A stretch of DNA of 64,000 nt from an uncultured Thermoplasmatales archaeon (GTDB taxonomy: Archaea > Thermoplasmatota > E2 > DHVEG-1). Made by a program: the position numbers and the translations under genes. The stretch spans positions 24,418 through 88,417 of the forward strand of contig CAZTFR010000001.1 in assembly GCA_964612945.1 (NCBI GenBank), given 5' to 3'. Numbering within the stretch: position 1 is the stretch's first letter; every line of letters begins with the position of its first letter. Positions 3,561-49,000 of this stretch are shown here, in pieces. The notes below the pieces were generated by a model. The model was not told the DNA's origin. It saw only the letters and a program-made list of their open reading frames with translations, and searched no databases.

Positions 3561-4221
3561 CAGTCATTAAAAAGGCTACCATATGACCAAGAAGTGTATG
3601 CATGTCTTCACTGTGTTGCATGTTATCTATTTCAACAGTGATGCATTCATCGGCAACCTGTTTTAGTGCTCCCCCGTCAAATCCAGCAAAACCAATGGTG
3701 TAACACCCCAGCTCTTTTGCCTGTTGCATACCTTCGATAATGTTTTTTGAGTTTCCGCTTCCACTGATACCAAGAACGACATCGTTTTTGTCTGCAAGAA
3801 TGTAGAGTTGCTCTTTAAAGATCACACTGTAGTCGTCATCGTTACTATATGCAGTGATTGAGGCGATACTATCAGTGAGGGCGATGGCTTTCAGTTTTCT
3901 GAATTTTGAAAAATCGCAGATCAGATGGGAGGCAAGCGAACCGCTTCCACCATTTCCCATAAGAAATACTTTTTTTCCTTCTCTACGTGTTTTTTCAAGA
4001 ATCTGCAAGACACGTTGTATTTGATCCGTTTTCTTTTTCAGCTGTTCAATACATTGAATGGATTCATCAAGATACTGCTGAATCTGATTCGTCCTATCTG
4101 TATAGGTTGGACTAGTATCTGTTGATTTTTGTGTTGGTTGTTTTTTCTCCTCACTCTTTTGTATTATACCTTGTCTCATCCTTACCACCTTCTCATTTTT
4201 TTGTATGAGACTCGGTTCCAA
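3550..4221 (-). CDS. gmhA: phosphoheptose isomerase (SIS domain, GmhA-like)
   Basis: KVFLMGNGGSGSLASHL and LGISGSGNSKNII SIS motifs. The low-complexity N-terminal about 40 aa suggests the true start may be an internal Met. Overlaps the gmhB start (operonic). Confidence 0.7.
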   Translation of the reverse strand: MEPSLIQKNEKVVRMRQGIIQKSEEKKQPTQKSTDTSPTYTDRTNQIQQYLDESIQCIEQLKKKTDQIQRVLQILEKTRREGKKVFLMGNGGSGSLASHLICDFSKFRKLKAIALTDSIASITAYSNDDDYSVIFKEQLYILADKNDVVLGISGSGNSKNIIEGMQQAKELGCYTIGFAGFDGGALKQVADECITVEIDNMQHSEDMHTLLGHMVAFLMTDAE

Positions 4222-4346: not shown

Positions 4347-5315
4347 TTATTCTTCCACATAAATGATACGACTGCCCTGAGGTTCAAGTCTAAAGGAGGT
4401 TTCTGTTAGATCATTGAGTGCCTTTCGAACCGGTTCTTGTTTTTGTTTTTCGATGTAGAGCAGTAAGAATCCGCCGCCACCAGCGCCTAATATTTTTCCA
4501 CCAAGCGCTCCTGCTTTTCGAGCTTTTTTATAGATAGTATCTATAGTTTTATTGGTAACCTTTCCTGTTTTCTTTTTGTATTCCCATGCAGTATGTAAAA
4601 GTTCTCCAAAACTGGAAAGATCATTGTTCCTGAGTGCTTCAGCCATCTCATGAGAGAGTTCTTTGAGTTTGTCGACTTGCCTGTATAGCACTTTCATGTT
4701 TTGTTTGCTTTCAGACAGAATCGTGCTTGCTTTACGGTTGACTCCTGTGTAGACGAGCAGGAGATTTGCGTTAAGTTGTTCGATGGTTTGTGTGTGGGCG
4801 ATGATGGGGTTGACAAAGACGGTTTCATCTGAGTTGAAACGGATAGTGTTGAGCCCCCCGTAGGCGCAGGCGTATTGATCTTGTTTACCGATGGGTTCGT
4901 GAAGGCGGCGTATTTCGATCTCGCAGGCTTCCTGGGCAAGTTTTTCTGCCCCCGCGTGTTCTCCTTTGTATGCGTGAAGCGCATTGAGAAGTCCGACGGT
5001 AAACGCGCTAGAGGATCCAAGACCGGTTCCAGAGGGAATATCGGCAATGGTGGTAATTTCTAGGCCACCATCAAGGTCGAGGAGCTGCAGTGCCTCGCGG
5101 ACGATAGGATGTTGAATTTCACCAACTTTTTCGACGATTTCAGTTTTTGAGTAGCTCACACGGATGTGGTTGTCGAATTTTTTGTTGACGGTGACATAAA
5201 TATATTTGTCAATGGAAGTGCTAATCACTGATCCGTAGGAGTGTTGATAGTAGTCTTGCAGATCAGAGACGCCTCCTGCAAAACTAATGCGAAAGGGTGT
5301 TTTTGAGATAATCAT
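4347..5315 (-). CDS. hddA: GHMP kinase, D-glycero-D-manno-heptose 7-phosphate kinase-like (HddA)
   Basis: MIISKTPFRISFAGGVSDL N-terminus. GHMP ATP-binding loop PSGTGLGSSSA. Confidence 0.7.
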   Translation of the reverse strand: MIISKTPFRISFAGGVSDLQDYYQHSYGSVISTSIDKYIYVTVNKKFDNHIRVSYSKTEIVEKVGEIQHPIVREALQLLDLDGGLEITTIADIPSGTGLGSSSAFTVGLLNALHAYKGEHAGAEKLAQEACEIEIRRLHEPIGKQDQYACAYGGLNTIRFNSDETVFVNPIIAHTQTIEQLNANLLLVYTGVNRKASTILSESKQNMKVLYRQVDKLKELSHEMAEALRNNDLSSFGELLHTAWEYKKKTGKVTNKTIDTIYKKARKAGALGGKILGAGGGGFLLLYIEKQKQEPVRKALNDLTETSFRLEPQGSRIIYVEE

Positions 5316-6250
5316 TGCTCATCCAACAAATAGCGGACGGTTCGTCGCACCGCATCTTCTAGTTTTACAGTGGTACGCCATCCCTGTTTTTTTGCTTTTT
5401 TATAGGAAAGAACCGTGATGGGAACGTCGCCTACCCAGCCGCGATCCCCCCCGGTAAATGTGTACTTCACATCAGATAGACCCATCTCATCGACAATAAT
5501 AGGGGCCAGATCTTTGACTTTAATTGATTCATCATTGGCAAGATTGTATGCTTCGACGACCACATTAAAATCCTGTTTTGGTATATTGATCAGCCCGGCA
5601 ACACAGTCGCTGACATCAAAATAGGATTTCGTCTGATTTCCATCTCCCAAAATTTCTAGCTCTCGTGGATTTTTTTGCAGTTTAGCGACAAAATCGGGAA
5701 TCACCCCATGAGTGCTCCGTCTACCAACAACATTTGCAAACCGAAACATCCAGGACTGAATACCATAGGTGTAACAATAGGAGCTGATAAATTTCTCAGC
5801 AGCAATCTTACTTGCCCCATAAAAGGAAATCGGGCGAATATCTGGGAGATCCTCTGGTGTGGGTATCACTTCAGTTTCTCCATAGAGTGCGGAACTGGAG
5901 GCAAACACCAATTTTTTTATATCATGAAGACGCATGAATTCAAGGACGGTATGCGTGCCAATCACGTTTTCTTCAAGATCCACACGGGTGTTATGGACAC
6001 CACTGCGAATGTCTGCGTTTGCGGCGAGATGAAATACCCAGTCAAATGATTCATCAGTAAAACTGGATAACTCTTTAATGTCTTTTTTTCGAAACTCAAA
6101 GTTGTCTTTTCCCTCATGGTGTTTAAGAAACTCGCTTTTACCCGTTCTAAGATTATCTATTGCGACAAGTTTCTCAGGATTTTCAGCCATCAATGTATCA
6201 ACCAGGTTACTTCCGATGAACCCGGCGCCACCGGTTATAAGATATTTCAT
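5312..6250 (-). CDS. NAD-dependent epimerase/dehydratase (extended SDR, GalE/WbpP-like)
   Basis: ITGGAGFIGSNLV Rossmann motif and YGASK catalytic YxxxK. Confidence 0.75.
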   Translation of the reverse strand: MKYLITGGAGFIGSNLVDTLMAENPEKLVAIDNLRTGKSEFLKHHEGKDNFEFRKKDIKELSSFTDESFDWVFHLAANADIRSGVHNTRVDLEENVIGTHTVLEFMRLHDIKKLVFASSSALYGETEVIPTPEDLPDIRPISFYGASKIAAEKFISSYCYTYGIQSWMFRFANVVGRRSTHGVIPDFVAKLQKNPRELEILGDGNQTKSYFDVSDCVAGLINIPKQDFNVVVEAYNLANDESIKVKDLAPIIVDEMGLSDVKYTFTGGDRGWVGDVPITVLSYKKAKKQGWRTTVKLEDAVRRTVRYLLDEQ

Positions 6251-6417
6251 CTATCATTCACCTTTTTTTCTAAACATACTTTTCTATGAGGCATACTATC
6301 TGCGTCTCAGAAGAAAACCCTCAGAAAAGACAGAGGTAGTGCCTCGAATGACCTGTCTTGCAGTGATAAAAAAGGATAACTTAAATCTTTCTACAGAAGA
6401 CACCATCTTTTAATGCT

Positions 6418-7245
6418 TTATCGTTCACTTGCTTGTGATTTTCGAAGTCGTTCTTTTGTCATGGTTTTTTTCCCAATAAGTTTACAGAAAAAATACCCAA
6501 AACTTGCAAAAAACAGACGGATCAACTTCCAGGCAGATTCTCCTCGTTTAACCTTTACCATGTCAATAGGATCATACGCGGACCAGAGTGTGCCATGTTT
6601 TAAAGTCAGCTCTTTTCGTCCGAATCCATACCAAAAGGATTGCTTGAAAAACCCCATAAGTGATTCACGAGCCCGATGATACACAATAGCTCGTTTGTTA
6701 TACACTAACCTGAACCCTTGATCGACAGCACGAAAGTTCAGATCAACCTCTTCGGCTTCCTTAAACCAGGGATCAAATCCTTCAAGTTGATCAAACACCT
6801 CCTTTTTATAGGCAAGATTTACACTGGGATAGGTTACATCCACCCCCTTATGAATGATGCCTACTCTACCGAGTGAGCCGAATCCTTTGAAGCCCAGACG
6901 GACCTCCCGACCTGCTACCACATCTGCGTTCCTCAAAGATTTTTGTATTTCTTCAATCCAAAATGCATTGGCAATAGCATCAGCATCAATAAAGGCGACC
7001 ACATCACCCGTGGCCTTTTTTGCACCAAAATTTCTCCCTGCCGCACGAGAACCAGGATCAGAGTAAAAGGAAATAAAATCATACAGCTTCTCATATTTTT
7101 TTACCAGTTCTGGTGTCTCATCGGTGCTCTCTGCATCCGTCACAATCACCTCATAGGGCTGCACGGTCTGCACAATCAGACTATCCAGCAAATCACAAAT
7201 ATAAAATGCTGAATTCCGTGTAATCACAATCACACTTGTTTTCAT
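6418..7245 (-). CDS. glycosyltransferase family 2
   Basis: SVIVITRNSA...VIVTDAESTDET...FIDAD (DxD) GT-A signature. Confidence 0.7.
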   Translation of the reverse strand: MKTSVIVITRNSAFYICDLLDSLIVQTVQPYEVIVTDAESTDETPELVKKYEKLYDFISFYSDPGSRAAGRNFGAKKATGDVVAFIDADAIANAFWIEEIQKSLRNADVVAGREVRLGFKGFGSLGRVGIIHKGVDVTYPSVNLAYKKEVFDQLEGFDPWFKEAEEVDLNFRAVDQGFRLVYNKRAIVYHRARESLMGFFKQSFWYGFGRKELTLKHGTLWSAYDPIDMVKVKRGESAWKLIRLFFASFGYFFCKLIGKKTMTKERLRKSQASER

Positions 7246-44649: not shown

Positions 44650-45351
44650 TTAGATTACTTTCTCCTGGAGGGTAACAATTCCCTGTTTACTTCCAACAAT
44701 GACTTCATCAACAAGATCGATAAAGAGTCCGTTTTCTACAACGCCCGGGATGAGGTTGAGTGTTTGTTCGAGGATGTCAGGTTCTTTGATTTTTCCAAAG
44801 TCACAGTCGAGTATGTAGTTTGCATTATCGGTAATGTAGACTTCTCCTACGATTTTTCGCAGTTCAGCAGTGCACCCGAGTTCTTCAATTGATTTTTTTG
44901 TGGCCGGCCAGGCATATTTGACGACTTCTACAGGTATTGGTGTATCAATGCCGAGTGCTTTTACTACTTTGGATTCATCGGCGATGATGATTACTTTTTC
45001 AGAGTGATACGCAACGATTTTTTCTCGTGTCAGTGCACCTCCTCCCCCTTTAATGACATTAAGATAGGAGTCCACTTCATCAGCGCCGTCGATTGTGACA
45101 TCAATTTCGGTGAACTCATTGAACTCGGTGAGTGGTATATTGTATTTTTTGGCTACTTTTTTTGTTTTCACTGAGGTAGGCACTCCTTCGATTTTCAGCC
45201 CGTCTTTGACCAGTTCTCCGAGTTTTTTGAGCATAAATTGAGCAGTTGATCCGGTACCAAGACCGATGGTCATATTGTCTTCAATAAATTCTAGTGCTTT
45301 TTCTGCGGCTTGTTTTTTCATATCATCTTGATCCACGAGGTCACCGTACAC
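44650..45351 (-). CDS. rpiA: ribose-5-phosphate isomerase A
   Basis: IGLGTGSTAQF, DGADEVD, KGGGGALTREK and PGVVENGLF motifs. Confidence 0.85.
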   Translation of the reverse strand: MYGDLVDQDDMKKQAAEKALEFIEDNMTIGLGTGSTAQFMLKKLGELVKDGLKIEGVPTSVKTKKVAKKYNIPLTEFNEFTEIDVTIDGADEVDSYLNVIKGGGGALTREKIVAYHSEKVIIIADESKVVKALGIDTPIPVEVVKYAWPATKKSIEELGCTAELRKIVGEVYITDNANYILDCDFGKIKEPDILEQTLNLIPGVVENGLFIDLVDEVIVGSKQGIVTLQEKVI

Positions 45352-45416
45352 AGGTATACAAAATCCTATACAAAAACCTTATACTTGGGAGGGACTTTAC
45401 AGGGGGCTTGAGAGTT

Positions 45417-46082
45417 ATGCTTGCCGAATGCAATGAACATGGATATTTCAGAGGTGATGTCTGTCCTATTTGTGGGCAGAAAGGAAAATTCTTGATGAAT
45501 GATCGAGAGCTTGACTCGCTTGGTCGTATTATGGCGGGTGTGCTGCGGCATTTCCCAGAAAAATTGGGTGTCATGATTGATGGTCATGGCTGGGTAGATA
45601 TCTCTGAGTTTGTGGAAAAAATCGGGGGGAGTCGATCTGGTTTTAATTGGCTGCGTGATCATCACGTTGAGGCTATTGCGCTGTCTGATCCAAAGGGGCG
45701 ATATCAGATTGATGGGGGTATGATTCGGGCGACCTATGGTCATACCATTGATATTAATCTTGATGACTTGCCGGACGCAGAGCTTGATGAATATTTTTAT
45801 CCGGTGACTGAGGAAGAAATTGATATTATTTTAGAAAATGGGTTGAATCCGATTGATCGGAAGCATGTGCATTTGAGTGGTAATATTGAAAAAGCCTTGG
45901 AGGCAGGTCATGTCCGCACCGAGGATCCGTTGATTCTGCGTATTGATGGTAAAAAAGCAATACAGGATGGTGTGCAGATATATGAAGCGGGTAGAGCGGT
46001 GTATATCACAGACCGTGTGGATGCGAAGTATCTTTCCAAAGTTGATGAAAAAGAGGTAAAAAAGGCCTTGGAAAAAGATTAA
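45417..46082 (+). CDS. kptA: RNA 2'-phosphotransferase (KptA/Tpt1) with N-terminal CxxC zinc-ribbon
   Basis: LSDPKGRYQIDGGMIRATYGHTIDI and RKHVHLSGN catalytic R/H motifs. N-terminal CNEHG...CPICG. Start taken at Met 45417 to avoid overlap with rpiA. Confidence 0.75.
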   Translation: MLAECNEHGYFRGDVCPICGQKGKFLMNDRELDSLGRIMAGVLRHFPEKLGVMIDGHGWVDISEFVEKIGGSRSGFNWLRDHHVEAIALSDPKGRYQIDGGMIRATYGHTIDINLDDLPDAELDEYFYPVTEEEIDIILENGLNPIDRKHVHLSGNIEKALEAGHVRTEDPLILRIDGKKAIQDGVQIYEAGRAVYITDRVDAKYLSKVDEKEVKKALEKD

Positions 46083-46137
46083 TACTCTCTTTTTTTTCCC
46101 ATTGCTCACAGTGCATTTGAGAGGTTGTCTTTTTATG

Positions 46138-46211
46138 GGCTTGTAGCTCAGCTAGGTAGAGCAATCGGCTCTTAACCGATTGGCCTGGGGTTCGAATCCC
46201 CACAAGCCCGC
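46138..46211 (+). tRNA. tRNA-Lys (anticodon CUU)
   Basis: Hand-folded cloverleaf. Acceptor GGGCTTG/CAAGCCC. D-arm GCTC-AGCTAGGTA-GAGC. Anticodon stem ATCGG/CCGAT with loop CTCTTAA. T-arm TGGGG-TTCGAAT-CCCCA. Discriminator G. No encoded CCA. Confidence 0.85.
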
Positions 46212-47099: not shown

Positions 47100-47444
47100 T
47101 TGTGTTTTTTGGTGGTGAACGTTATTCGCAAGAAATGCCCCGAATGTGGTGGTAAAGCAGTGCGCTTGTATCAAAATAAGACAGTGGATGGCAAACGTAA
47201 ATGGGTGCCAATTGCGTGGACGTGTACTAAGTGTAGCTATACGTATACTGTTGCCGGTGATACCCTGTTATATCCCGTAGGTGGTGAGCAATATAAAGAG
47301 GAATACGGTGGTCACTGTCCGAAATGTGATCTTAGACTTATCAGAGTGTTTCGTCATAAAAACCCGGTGCATGGCAAGCAGGAATGGATTTCATCTGCGT
47401 ATTATTGTAGTCGCTGTAAGTATGTGTGGTTGGATAAAAAGTAG
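47100..47444 (+). CDS. tandem double zinc-ribbon protein
   Basis: Two internally repeated modules. CPECGGKAVRLYQNKTVDGKRKWVPIAWTCTKCSYTY and CPKCDLRLIRVFRHKNPVHGKQEWISSAYYCSRCKYVW. Confidence 0.4.
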   Translation: MCFLVVNVIRKKCPECGGKAVRLYQNKTVDGKRKWVPIAWTCTKCSYTYTVAGDTLLYPVGGEQYKEEYGGHCPKCDLRLIRVFRHKNPVHGKQEWISSAYYCSRCKYVWLDKK

Positions 47445-47528: not shown

Positions 47529-47627
47529 AATGAAACGTAGTTCACGAGTATGGAAAAAACGCGGCCGTATGCGCTGGAAATGGCGAAAGAAACGAATGCG
47601 ACGAGAAAAACGCAGTCGGCGGAAGTA
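47529..47627 (+). CDS. rpl41e: ribosomal protein L41e (32 aa, highly basic), absent from the ORF track
   Basis: Translates to MKRSSRVWKKRGRMRWKWRKKRMRREKRSRRK. Matches the L41e K/R-rich consensus (…KWRKKRMRRLKRKRR…). Archaea/eukaryote-specific protein. Confidence 0.75.
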
Positions 47628-47653
47628 AGTAATCTGAGTATATCTTTGATACT

Positions 47654-47793
47654 CTGGGAGCATGGTGTAACCCGGCATCATTGTGGGCTCCAGTTAGGAA
47701 TGATTACAACAGGGTCATCTGATTTGGTGATGAGTAACTGGAGCGATGACCTAAGAAGAGACCCGCCGATCTGGGTTCAAATCCCAGTGCTCC
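47654..47793 (+). tRNA. intron-containing tRNA, most consistent with tRNA-Gln (CUG) carrying two introns
   Basis: Canonical acceptor GGGAGCA/TGCTCCC plus A. T-arm CTGGG-TTCAAAT-CCCAG. Candidate anticodon stem GGGTC/GACCC with loop AT-CUG-A interrupted by a 36-nt insert at 37/38. A second insert of about 31 nt lies between the D-arm and the anticodon stem. Exons total 73 nt. Confidence 0.55.
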
Positions 47794-47824
47794 CATACCG
47801 AATTGATTAAATACTACCTTTGAG

Positions 47825-48061
47825 GTGCATGAACATATGGCGATGGAAAATCCCTTTCAAACAGCAACGCTTTCCTGGAAACTCATCTTATCTGTTATTG
47901 TCATTATTATTGGTGTTGGTTATTGGCTCTATTGGGGGCTTACCTACAACGTATGGATGGATATCGGCATCTACTCTGTTACTATCTTTTTTGTCCTTTC
48001 TGGTATTTGCGGTCTCCTTCTGTTTTTATTAGGATCAAACACGCAATCACAAGACATATAA
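47825..48061 (+). CDS. small 2-TM membrane protein
   Basis: 78 aa with two hydrophobic helices. An overlapping alternative frame 47820..48032 makes the exact frame uncertain. Confidence 0.25.
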   Translation: MHEHMAMENPFQTATLSWKLILSVIVIIIGVGYWLYWGLTYNVWMDIGIYSVTIFFVLSGICGLLLFLLGSNTQSQDI

Positions 48062-48102
48062 CATCTCCCCCTAAAAACAACCAAAAGATTTAAATAGTAT
48101 AT

Positions 48103-48312
48103 ATGATAATGGTGAAGCGGATGGAACAAGACGACCTGTTAAAAAAATATTCTGGTGAATGGATCGTACTCTTTAATGACGAAATCGTAGATCACAGTTA
48201 CAATCTTGAGGATATGCTTAAAGTAGTTGATGAAAAATATTCTTCGGATAAGCGACCGGAAGACCAGATAAAAATATCAAAAGTCTTATCTGGGAACATT
48301 CATTTACACTGA
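48103..48312 (+). CDS. small protein (DUF5678-like) coupled to the retropepsin gene
   Basis: 69 aa (GEWIVLFNDEIVDHSYNLEDMLKVVDEKY). Its stop abuts the GTG start of the next gene. Confidence 0.4.
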   Translation: MIMVKRMEQDDLLKKYSGEWIVLFNDEIVDHSYNLEDMLKVVDEKYSSDKRPEDQIKISKVLSGNIHLH

Positions 48313-48711
48313 GTGCAGATGACAAAACAATCCTATACTTTCGAATATAATGATTATCCGTTAATCCCCATCAAGTTCACTTTTAATGGTCGAGAGACAC
48401 CAATGATTGATGCCTTACTTGACAGCGGTGGCGATTTTATTGTGATCCCTCAAGCAATCGCCGTCTATCTGGGATTAAAACTCGAACAAGCAGGTTGCGT
48501 AGATACTGCGGCAGGGGAAACAAATCTCTGCAGGGCACTTGTTGATCTCACCTTTTATGATAAACATCAAAAGTTCACCTATTCTAATCTTGAAATCCAT
48601 GTCTCTGATAGAAATGATATCCCTGTGCTTCTGGGGAGAAAACCAATTTTTGAGGATTATGAGATAACCTTTAAAAAACATAGCAATCAGCTTATTCTAA
48701 CCCCTGTGTAA
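48313..48711 (+). CDS. retropepsin-like aspartic peptidase (clan AA)
   Basis: ALLDSGGDFIVIP carries the D-S/T-G-A active-site signature. 132 aa, consistent with a homodimeric single-lobe pepsin. Frame starts at GTG immediately after the upstream TGA. Confidence 0.6.
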   Translation: MQMTKQSYTFEYNDYPLIPIKFTFNGRETPMIDALLDSGGDFIVIPQAIAVYLGLKLEQAGCVDTAAGETNLCRALVDLTFYDKHQKFTYSNLEIHVSDRNDIPVLLGRKPIFEDYEITFKKHSNQLILTPV

Positions 48712-48814: not shown

Positions 48815-49000
48815 TTGGCCTACACACATGATGGATGGACCCTGTATAAGAGAGATGTAACTTTGAAAGGCGGGCGCCAGCAGACGATTTATTTCTTTAG
48901 TAAGCGAACTCCTAAGAGTGGTACTCCTACCGATATGCCACCAGGATATGCCGTCGGAGTTAACAAACGAACGGGTCTACCGTATCTGAAGAAAAAATAA
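48815..49000 (+). CDS. small conserved-looking hypothetical protein (TTG start)
   Basis: 61 aa. GGAGGTG 7 nt upstream of the TTG start. Basic C-terminus. Confidence 0.3.
   Translation: MAYTHDGWTLYKRDVTLKGGRQQTIYFFSKRTPKSGTPTDMPPGYAVGVNKRTGLPYLKKK

Follow-up and report, generated by a model that had tools for sequence, protein, structure and literature searches.

A retropepsin-like peptidase gene and the conserved upstream gene for its probable DUF5678 partner in uncultured Thermoplasmatota

Retroviral proteases (PRs; family A2) are excised from a polyprotein, in which PR is preceded by a short transframe/p6* peptide, and the C-terminus of p6* restrains PR until it is removed. Among cellular proteins, the eukaryotic Ddi1 has a homodimeric retropepsin fold (its RVP domain) that works with accessory targeting domains, UBL and UBA, of the same chain. 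Free-standing prokaryotic retropepsin-like proteins are widespread, though few have been characterised (APRc, RimB and RloA). APRc (RC1339), from the bacterium Rickettsia conorii, is reportedly membrane-associated, has an N-terminal extension that is autoprocessed, and acts on surface proteins. RimB and RloA, from Pseudomonas, are encoded in operons with partners (an ATP-grasp ligase, RimK or RloC, and a transglutaminase-like membrane protein), their substrates are poly-glutamate tails, and RimB is reported to bind and regulate RimK (PMC11957051). Two candidate defence systems, PDC-M08 and PDC-M52, are two-gene cassettes in BREX, DISARM and type I restriction-modification loci (bioRxiv 10.1101/2024.01.29.577857); in these, a small A gene is followed by a B gene for a protein of about 120-140 amino acids with retropepsin-like similarity. 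Here we describe a gene pair from a 64,000-nucleotide stretch of an uncultured Thermoplasmatales archaeon (GenBank assembly GCA_964612945.1, contig CAZTFR010000001.1, positions 24,418 to 88,417 of the forward strand; hereafter "the window"), in which a gene for a retropepsin-like peptidase directly follows a gene for a small protein of family DUF5678. The explanation we prefer is a dedicated peptidase with a DUF5678 partner that binds or gates it, to which we give a probability of roughly 0.4.

No description of a DUF5678-retropepsin pairing, or of an archaeal member, was found in the literature, where DUF5678 appears in one unrelated plant paper and PF13650 in eukaryotic transposon contexts only. 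A CRISPR survey mentions a retropepsin-domain protein of about 100 amino acids near type III systems in Sulfolobales, which need not be a relative of the window family. Existing database labels for the two proteins are "DUF5678 domain-containing protein" and "retropepsin-like aspartic protease". The pairing thus appears to be undescribed: a known enzyme class with a new fixed partner and an unusual embedded cis-element. The argument uses the following features of the window:

48121..48312, + strand: DUF5678 gene, 63 amino acids, stop codon TGA at 48310-48312, start supported by homologues
48319..48711, + strand: gene for a retropepsin-like (clan AA, single-lobe) aspartic peptidase, 130 amino acids, recognised by PF13650, by alignment to the human T-lymphotropic virus 1 (HTLV-1) protease and by AlphaFold2/Foldseek
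48421..48432, + strand: catalytic Asp-Ser-Gly signature, D35-S36-G37-G38, invariant in 26 homologues
48628..48639, + strand: hydrophobic-hydrophobic-Gly(-Arg) motif, L104-L105-G106-R107, without variation among the 26 aligned sequences
48089..48096, + strand: putative DUF5678 promoter, a TATA-like box (TTTAAATA) some 30 nt before ATG 48121
48274..48291, + strand: nucleotide motif ATATCAAAAGT(A/C)TTATCT in the 3' end of the DUF5678 gene, where it spans codons I-S-K-V-L-S and precedes the peptidase ATG by 28-45 nt

The window letters and a list of open reading frames (ORFs) give two consecutive, co-directional ORFs on the + strand at 48103-48711, called mechanically as 48103..48312 (69 amino acids) and 48313..48711 (132 amino acids, GTG start). 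Homologues place both starts further in. The start of DUF5678 is conserved at ATG 48121 (MEQDD) across 28 aligned homologues, and ATG 48103 sits between the conserved TATA-like box and this real start. All 26 aligned homologues of the peptidase begin with the Met that matches ATG 48319 (MTKQSY...; M-x-x-x-x-F-x-F-E-Y), and the database entries for the window's exact proteins have 130 amino acids for the peptidase and 63 for DUF5678. The junction is therefore TGA 48310-48312, a 6-nt gap and ATG 48319, and comparison of the upstream regions of related loci gave no conserved Shine-Dalgarno-like sequence before the peptidase ATG. Both ORFs are genuine and neither is a product of chance: their Pfam scores are above cut-off, and they have 183 (DUF5678) and 638 (peptidase) database homologues. 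The best 120 of each are 64-84% identical, and the named homologues among these are mostly from Thermoplasmatota metagenome-assembled genomes (MAGs).

A first-pass annotation, made from the letters alone, had proposed this ORF pair with lengths of 69 and 132 amino acids; the pair stands, and the lengths give way to 63 and 130. It had also described a TGA directly abutting the GTG start of the peptidase as the strongest form of translational coupling. That description rested on the mechanical GTG, which homologues do not use, and it sits poorly with spacers of at least 50 nt in a quarter of species. The D-S-G-G motif that it pointed out in the larger ORF is present (LLDSGGDFIVIP, with DSGG at nucleotides 48421-48432). 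Its assignment of that ORF to the single-lobe retropepsins agrees with the PF13650 score, the HTLV-1 PR alignment and an APRc-like model, and its guess that the smaller ORF is DUF5678 was correct (PF18929, 32.0 bits). Of the profile searches it suggested, those with PF13650 and DUF5678 gave scores above their cut-offs, and that with PF13975 fell just below.

In detail, the peptidase matches PF13650 (Asp_protease_2) at 30.6 bits (cut-off 24.3), with residues 21-109 covering profile positions 2-88 of 90, and PF13975 (gag-asp_proteas) at 25.9 bits, slightly under the cut-off of 28.2. These are its only Pfam matches. Two NCBIfam models of clan AA subfamilies score far lower: TIGR03698 (clan_AA_DTGF) gives 18.0 bits (E 0.0027, cut-off 57.35) and TIGR02281 a weak 14.7 bits (cut-off near 57). 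Judged by these scores, the peptidase is related to the TIGR03698 subfamily and is not a member of it. When the family profile is aligned with HTLV-1 protease, DSGG falls on DTGA of the viral active-site region (E 0.01). The residues invariant in the 26-sequence alignment are D35, S36, G37, G38, D39, F40, V61-D-T-A-x-G66 and L104-L-G-R107; these are also conserved across 91 locus-derived sequences, where DSGG is at least 98% conserved. VDTAGGET forms the Gly-rich beta-hairpin flap segment, and the counterpart of LLGR in HIV-1 protease (family A2) is IIGR (IIGRN).

The AlphaFold2 model of the peptidase (pLDDT 84.2) is all-beta with one short helix, and it has the single-lobe barrel and flap hairpin of a retropepsin. 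Its top Foldseek match in the Protein Data Bank (PDB) is APRc 5c9f (E 5e-7, TM-score 0.69), followed by the proteases of HTLV-1, equine infectious anaemia virus (EIAV), Rous sarcoma virus (RSV) and feline immunodeficiency virus (FIV) and by the RVP domain of Ddi1 (E ~7e-4). There are 29 PDB matches at E <= 1e-3, including the lobes of plasmepsin II. The protein has an isoelectric point (pI) of 5.05, and no signal peptide or transmembrane segment is evident by eye. Sequence and model together indicate a cytoplasmic, single-lobe retropepsin-like peptidase of clan AA whose catalytic apparatus is under purifying selection. By analogy with family A2, it would form a homodimer in which Asp35 of each chain contributes to the catalytic dyad, and it would be proteolytically active.

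Comparison with the described systems shows where this protein stands. APRc (PDB 5c9b, 5c9d and 5c9f; PMC4140852), also a prokaryotic single-lobe clan AA protein, is the best structural match, with 21% identity over 131 columns; however, APRc is bacterial, whereas the window protein is a bare archaeal cytoplasmic domain of 130 amino acids accompanied by a separate upstream DUF5678 gene. The retroviral proteases (A2: HTLV-1, HIV-1, RSV, EIAV and FIV) share with it the fold, the D-S/T-G signature, the Gly-rich flap and the hydrophobic-hydrophobic-Gly-Arg motif. Sequence similarity to them is marginal (E 0.01, HTLV-1 PR), there is no retroelement context, and where retroviral PR is cut out of a polyprotein, the upstream element in the window is a separate folded protein with its own gene. 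Ddi1 resembles the pair in combining a cellular retropepsin fold with accessory function, but DUF5678 is a separate chain and has neither a beta-grasp nor a UBA fold. RimB and RloA are likewise prokaryotic retropepsin-like peptidases encoded beside a partner gene. Here the partner is of another kind: in annotated relatives, none of the genes called within 5 kb of the pair is of the ATP-grasp type, and five scanned window proteins around the pair give no ATP-grasp Pfam match.

The conserved residues also bear on whether the retropepsin-like protein is a catalytically silent binding scaffold that has merely retained the fold. Its DSGG has Gly where most retropepsins have Ala, and the TIGR03698 score (18 against 57.35 bits) is far under the cut-off, both of which such a scaffold would accommodate. 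Asp35, Ser36, Gly37, the flap glycines and LLGR are nevertheless invariant or nearly so in all 91 locus-derived sequences, as expected of purifying selection on catalysis, and related subfamilies carry DSGA and DSGS. We hold a silent scaffold to be highly improbable.

The smaller ORF matches PF18929 (DUF5678) above its cut-off of 23.2 bits, and all the listed homologues contain PF18929. The protein is cytoplasmic, with a pI of 4.8 and a predicted alpha-beta-beta-alpha-beta order followed by a flexible C-terminal tail, which is of low confidence in the model. For its size, it has unusually many invariant polar residues (E13, N19, D24, H25, S26, N28, E30 and K54), a sequence pattern that fits a specific binding surface. 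After the third strand come 5-10 variable residues, and across subfamilies these have a mostly hydrophobic end (HLH, RLRDF, IRTW, NLKLL, SNML). We infer from this that the tail is a candidate cleft-binding element. The model has no significant structural neighbour, and no DNA-binding domain (ribbon-helix-helix, helix-turn-helix, AbrB or Phd) was found by Pfam, NCBIfam or structural comparison. Searched against 1.84 billion representatives, the family profile finds 25 clusters, with proteins of 46-254 amino acids.

One match of the DUF5678 profile was set aside. Residues 16-47 (window 48166-48261) align over 32 residues with the phosphoribosyl pyrophosphate (PRPP)-binding loop of the phosphoribosyltransferase PDB 7kl6 (159 amino acids; E 3.6e-4; LLFNDEIVDHSxNLEDVLKxADEKYPxEKF against ILVVDEIVDSGNSLEAVLKVLQDKHPDKKF). 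We do not take this as homology because the AlphaFold2 model predicts a beta-hairpin there rather than a PRPP loop; the two probably share a strand-loop-helix pattern.

Gene order supports a partnership. A scan for the peptidase in one genome per GTDB species gave 92 confirmed relatives, of which 80 were retained; hidden Markov models (HMMs) were built for five neighbouring genes, and all fetched loci were scanned with them. The 80 retained relatives (57-71% identity) are all from uncultured Thermoplasmatota, including SM1-50 and SG8-52-3. In 78 of the 80 species genome loci and in 12 of 12 metagenome loci, the gene immediately before the peptidase, on the same strand, is DUF5678; in all 91 loci with both genes, the order (DUF5678 first) and strand are constant. 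In 65 of the 91, the spacer measures -8 to 11 nt (mode 4-8), and in 21 it measures 50-151 nt. The remaining five have spacers of 457-985 nt, and all five contain an extra inserted gene (a Cys-motif coiled-coil ORF in four, a membrane protein in one).

The association also holds when approached from the other gene. A reciprocal search, which started from a divergent DUF5678 subfamily and covered 80 metagenome loci, found a related peptidase downstream of DUF5678 in 72. The eight exceptions, most of them contig ends, comprise five loci with no more than 228 nt after the DUF5678 stop, one with an inserted third gene and then the end of the sequence, and two in which an unrelated ORF comes next. 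This divergent subfamily is paired with a DSGGDS-type peptidase. Other combinations occur, e.g., a 56-aa DUF5678 with a DSGS-type peptidase, where TAG abuts ATG (locus L098). A contig with 57% GC, which comes from an unrelated organism (locus L093; 2260-3692), has three tandem DUF5678 paralogues (92, 112 and 91 amino acids) before a single DSGA-type Asp_protease_2 peptidase of a different retropepsin subfamily, with a TAATG overlap. The first-pass annotation had spoken of a fixed partner and suggested a check of neighbourhood conservation; adjacency held in both directions, so the two genes are indeed co-conserved, strongly enough to make a fixed functional partnership very probable. We hold the identity of both proteins and their conserved linkage with high confidence.

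Conserved adjacency could also arise if the gene order were simply inherited within one archaeal lineage and the two proteins were independent of each other. All close relatives are in one phylum, and a promoter-like signal of its own accompanies each conserved neighbour. Relatives of the closer kind, at about 65% identity or more, share a whole cluster, consisting of a double Zn-ribbon gene, an intron-containing tRNA, a membrane protein gene, DUF5678, the peptidase and a 61-aa basic gene, so genes unrelated to the pair are conserved there too. However, flanks beyond this local cluster differ among loci, and distant relatives (57-63% identical) retain DUF5678 and the peptidase only. The pair outlasts all other synteny and is therefore the conserved core. 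Moreover, the pairing recurs in the divergent subfamily and, with a different retropepsin subfamily, on the 57% GC contig, and its order and strand never vary. Independence of the two proteins is very unlikely on these grounds.

Some loci have further features of their own. Four with a third gene between DUF5678 and the peptidase (L069 2780-3142, L082 3500-3922, L090 3515-3895 and L171 970-1317) belong to one subclade; the product of the inserted gene has about 120-140 amino acids, is coiled-coil-like and has a conserved motif, CKQCKEPCGRSNAEI(F/Y)(N/K)C. The two partners are themselves extended at the C-terminus in a way distinctive of this subclade (..TPRETLMDK and ..SSYPPGF). The cluster in L093 adjoins HIT, radical-SAM and PEP carboxylase genes. 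In locus L032, a DUF5678 remnant (3837-3992) lies just upstream of an intact peptidase, and a 561-aa ORF (5148-6830), about 450 nt past the 61-aa gene, may be a rearrangement or insertion.

In loci that also carry the housekeeping neighbours, the peptidase is 64-70% and DUF5678 60-75% identical to the window, compared with 65-68% for RpiA and 68-79% for Tpt1. On this sequence comparison, the pair evolves slowly and vertically, like RpiA and Tpt1 and unlike the usual mobile toxin-antitoxin or defence gene. The pair is best explained as a two-gene module that uncultured Thermoplasmatota carry on the chromosome and inherit vertically.

This matters for the idea of a toxin-antitoxin-like or phage-defence cassette, kin to PDC-M08/PDC-M52, with the peptidase as the toxic effector and DUF5678 as the antitoxin. 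Its architecture does fit: a small gene comes first, an effector of about 130 amino acids next, and the spacing is tight, with a promoter of its own. In type II toxin-antitoxin modules, too, the gene for the putative neutraliser comes first: both genes are small and run in the same direction, they overlap or lie close together, and a promoter precedes gene 1. The constant order in 91 loci and spacer of no more than 11 nt in 65 follow that plan. There are also weak PADLOC matches (window peptidase to PDC-M52B, E 1e-5, and to PDC-M08B, 4e-3; L093 peptidase to PDC-M08B, 2e-3; L098 DUF5678 to PDC-M08A, 0.019), as well as the tandem DUF5678 copies in L093 and two pairs in one MAG (L041 and L055).

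However, the B match is weak and the window DUF5678 matches no PADLOC model, A component included, at E <= 1. PDC-M08 and PDC-M52 are defined by embedding in BREX, DISARM or type I restriction-modification loci, whereas the window pair is single-copy and sits in syntenic chromosomal context beside tRNA and housekeeping genes, with no defence island. It is present in at least 80 species of a single lineage rather than patchily, with RpiA/Tpt1-like divergence, and shows no sign of mobility: a viral contig collection and 72,556 plasmids yielded no relatives, and PHROGs gives no matches. Both proteins are acidic, DUF5678 lacks a detected DNA-binding domain of the antitoxin kind, and the peptidase motifs are intact in two species where DUF5678 has been lost (L031) or truncated (L032), so the peptidase tolerates loss of its partner. 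From its sequence, the pair does not look like a typical toxin-antitoxin pair, and we regard a cassette of this kind as unlikely.

The expression signals around the two genes are themselves conserved. In nearly all related loci, TATATA or TAAATA lies at about -30 and GGTAAG or GGTAAT at about -14 before the DUF5678 ATG, and several other window genes have TATA-like boxes at similar distances. These positions suggest that the DUF5678(-peptidase) transcript is near-leaderless and made from a TATA-type promoter.

A second element is embedded in the 3' end of the DUF5678 gene. The ATATCAAAAGTATTATC motif, from which the window copy differs by one substitution, is nearly invariant in coding and non-coding versions alike, and CAAAAGT is found at -38 to -43 from the peptidase ATG in 65 of 80 unique upstream sequences. 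Where the motif is coding, its synonymous sites are frozen: the top codon has a frequency of 0.86 (Ile), 0.93 (Ser), 0.86 (Lys) and 0.80 (Val), compared with mostly 0.3-0.6 for four- to six-codon residues elsewhere in both genes. In the 21 loci with 50-151 nt spacers, DUF5678 is intact with a new C-terminus, and a degenerate, stop-interrupted version of the old 3' end (..KISKVLS*DIHLH.., the asterisk being a stop) is kept just upstream of the peptidase ATG. Stop-start coupling alone, then, does not explain peptidase expression. The distance from the A/T-rich core of the motif to the peptidase ATG is the same as that from the TATA box to the DUF5678 ATG, and the motif may be an internal promoter that gives a near-leaderless peptidase mRNA; alternatively, it may be a regulator binding site or a re-initiation element. 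In the 60 nt that precede the peptidase ATG, RNAalifold detects no conserved RNA structure. Scans for bacterial signals (sigma-70 promoters and intrinsic terminators) gave counts no higher than background, as one would expect of an archaeon.

We propose that the pair works as follows. DUF5678 would be transcribed from the TATA-type promoter about 30 nt before its ATG, and the peptidase would be produced either by re-initiation over the 4-8 nt spacer of that transcript or from the promoter-like element within the 3' part of the DUF5678 gene, or in both ways. DUF5678 would then dock on the peptidase and gate its active site in trans, like a prosegment or inhibitor, with its conserved, flexible, hydrophobic-ended C-terminal tail entering the cleft. 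The result would be an intracellular endopeptidase that stays silent until the partner is displaced or degraded. We favour a gate or inhibitor in trans because the partner gene is always first, because an unrestrained cytoplasmic endopeptidase needs restraint, and because the flexible tail of DUF5678 suits a cleft that binds extended strands. That the two proteins are direct physical partners is probable; that DUF5678 is specifically an inhibitor or gate is a more tentative proposal, and doubtful taken on its own.

DUF5678 could instead be a substrate of the peptidase (e.g., with its tail cleaved and an active fragment released) or an adaptor that delivers substrates, comparable to ClpS or the accessory domains of Ddi1, and the comparative data agree with such a role just as well. 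However, the tail, which varies by subfamily (HLH, RLRDF, PP..L.L), shows no obvious conserved scissile motif of the hydrophobic-hydrophobic type; as for an adaptor, the similarity of DUF5678 to ClpS is below any significance threshold. We consider a substrate or adaptor role possible and on the whole rather unlikely.

Several observations weigh against a dedicated peptidase with a binding or gating partner. Spacers reach 50 nt or more in 26 of 80 unique loci, and five loci have an intervening gene, so fixed stoichiometry via coupling is not universal. L031 has no adjacent DUF5678, with AbrB-like and metallopeptidase-like ORFs (by eye) upstream instead, and L032 keeps only a C-terminal remnant of DUF5678 (...LILSKVLSGIVHLR); since the peptidase motifs are intact in both, an obligatory inhibitor is either not strictly required or encoded elsewhere. 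DUF5678 genes also occur without the peptidase (L094-L097, L105 and L106), and among the 25 family clusters there is no DUF5678-peptidase fusion, the longer matches being tandem repeats or chimeric gene calls. Inter-protein mutual information with average product correction (137 unique pairs, an effective number of about 60 sequences) picks out clade-defining substitutions only (at the top, L29 of DUF5678 with A46 of the peptidase), which are uninformative. Finally, this putatively active peptidase has Gly at the fourth motif position, which is usually Ala.

If a partner gates the active site, the pair would offer a simple model of how dimeric aspartic proteases are regulated. More generally, one constant partner for an archaeal subfamily, shared by at least 80 species and present in unrelated lineages too, is a handle on how cellular retropepsins are controlled, and it gives DUF5678 its first functional context. 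The hosts are uncultured sediment Thermoplasmatota, so a conserved intracellular protease system in them is of ecological interest. Even a negative outcome would prevent misannotation of the pair as a toxin-antitoxin or defence cassette. A bolder version, which we think improbable as a whole, is that Thermoplasmatota as a lineage have a regulated intracellular protease system of the housekeeping type, in which a separately encoded prosegment-like protein gates a free-standing homodimeric retropepsin. It would be a cellular two-polypeptide counterpart of retroviral p6*/PR, and no archaeal retropepsin before it would have had a defined regulatory partner; through the embedded cis-motif, the cell could express the peptidase independently of the partner.

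The genes around the pair include the remaining members of the conserved local cluster:

47100..47444, + strand: double zinc-ribbon protein with two similar halves and four CxxC pairs; upstream in about 30 loci (median 70% identity), lost in distant relatives
47837..48061, + strand: small membrane protein of two helices, preceded by a TATA-like box of its own; synteny with the pair in closer relatives (about 30-38 loci; median identity 47%), lost in distant ones
48815..49000, + strand: very basic protein of 61 amino acids (pI 10.2) that starts with TTG; upstream are a TATA-like box of its own and GGAGGTG, which resembles a Shine-Dalgarno site

With a median identity of 80% in 42 loci, the 61-aa protein (which contains ...GWTLYKRDVTLKGGRQQTIYFFSKR...NKRTGLPYLKKK) is the most conserved of the local cluster, and it has no matches in Pfam, NCBIfam, PADLOC or PHROGs. 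The window neighbours of the pair are tRNA-Lys, an intron-containing tRNA-Trp, RpiA, Tpt1 and small conserved proteins; those in relatives include TGT, S-adenosylmethionine synthetase and methyltransferases.

An RpiA-like ORF (44650-45351, - strand) and a Tpt1/KptA-like (RNA 2'-phosphotransferase) ORF (45294-46082, + strand) are divergent and overlap by 58 nt at their 5' ends as mechanically called, so their true starts are probably further in. A tRNA-Lys(CTT) follows the Tpt1/KptA-like ORF at 46137-46211. The intron-containing tRNA at 47656-47795 (+ strand) was missed by ARAGORN and is matched by the full Rfam tRNA model over 140 nt (38.9 bits); its anticodon loop, CU-CCA, makes it a tRNA-Trp, and a mechanical ORF that overlaps it (47550-47810) is spurious. 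The intron, of about 70 nt, has sub-threshold matches to C/D-box sRNAs (sR3, 25.6 bits) and recognisable C, D', C' and D boxes, and its guide CUGGAGC is complementary to GCUCCAG in the anticodon loop of its own tRNA. We take it to be the classic euryarchaeal pre-tRNA-Trp intron that guides 2'-O-methylation.

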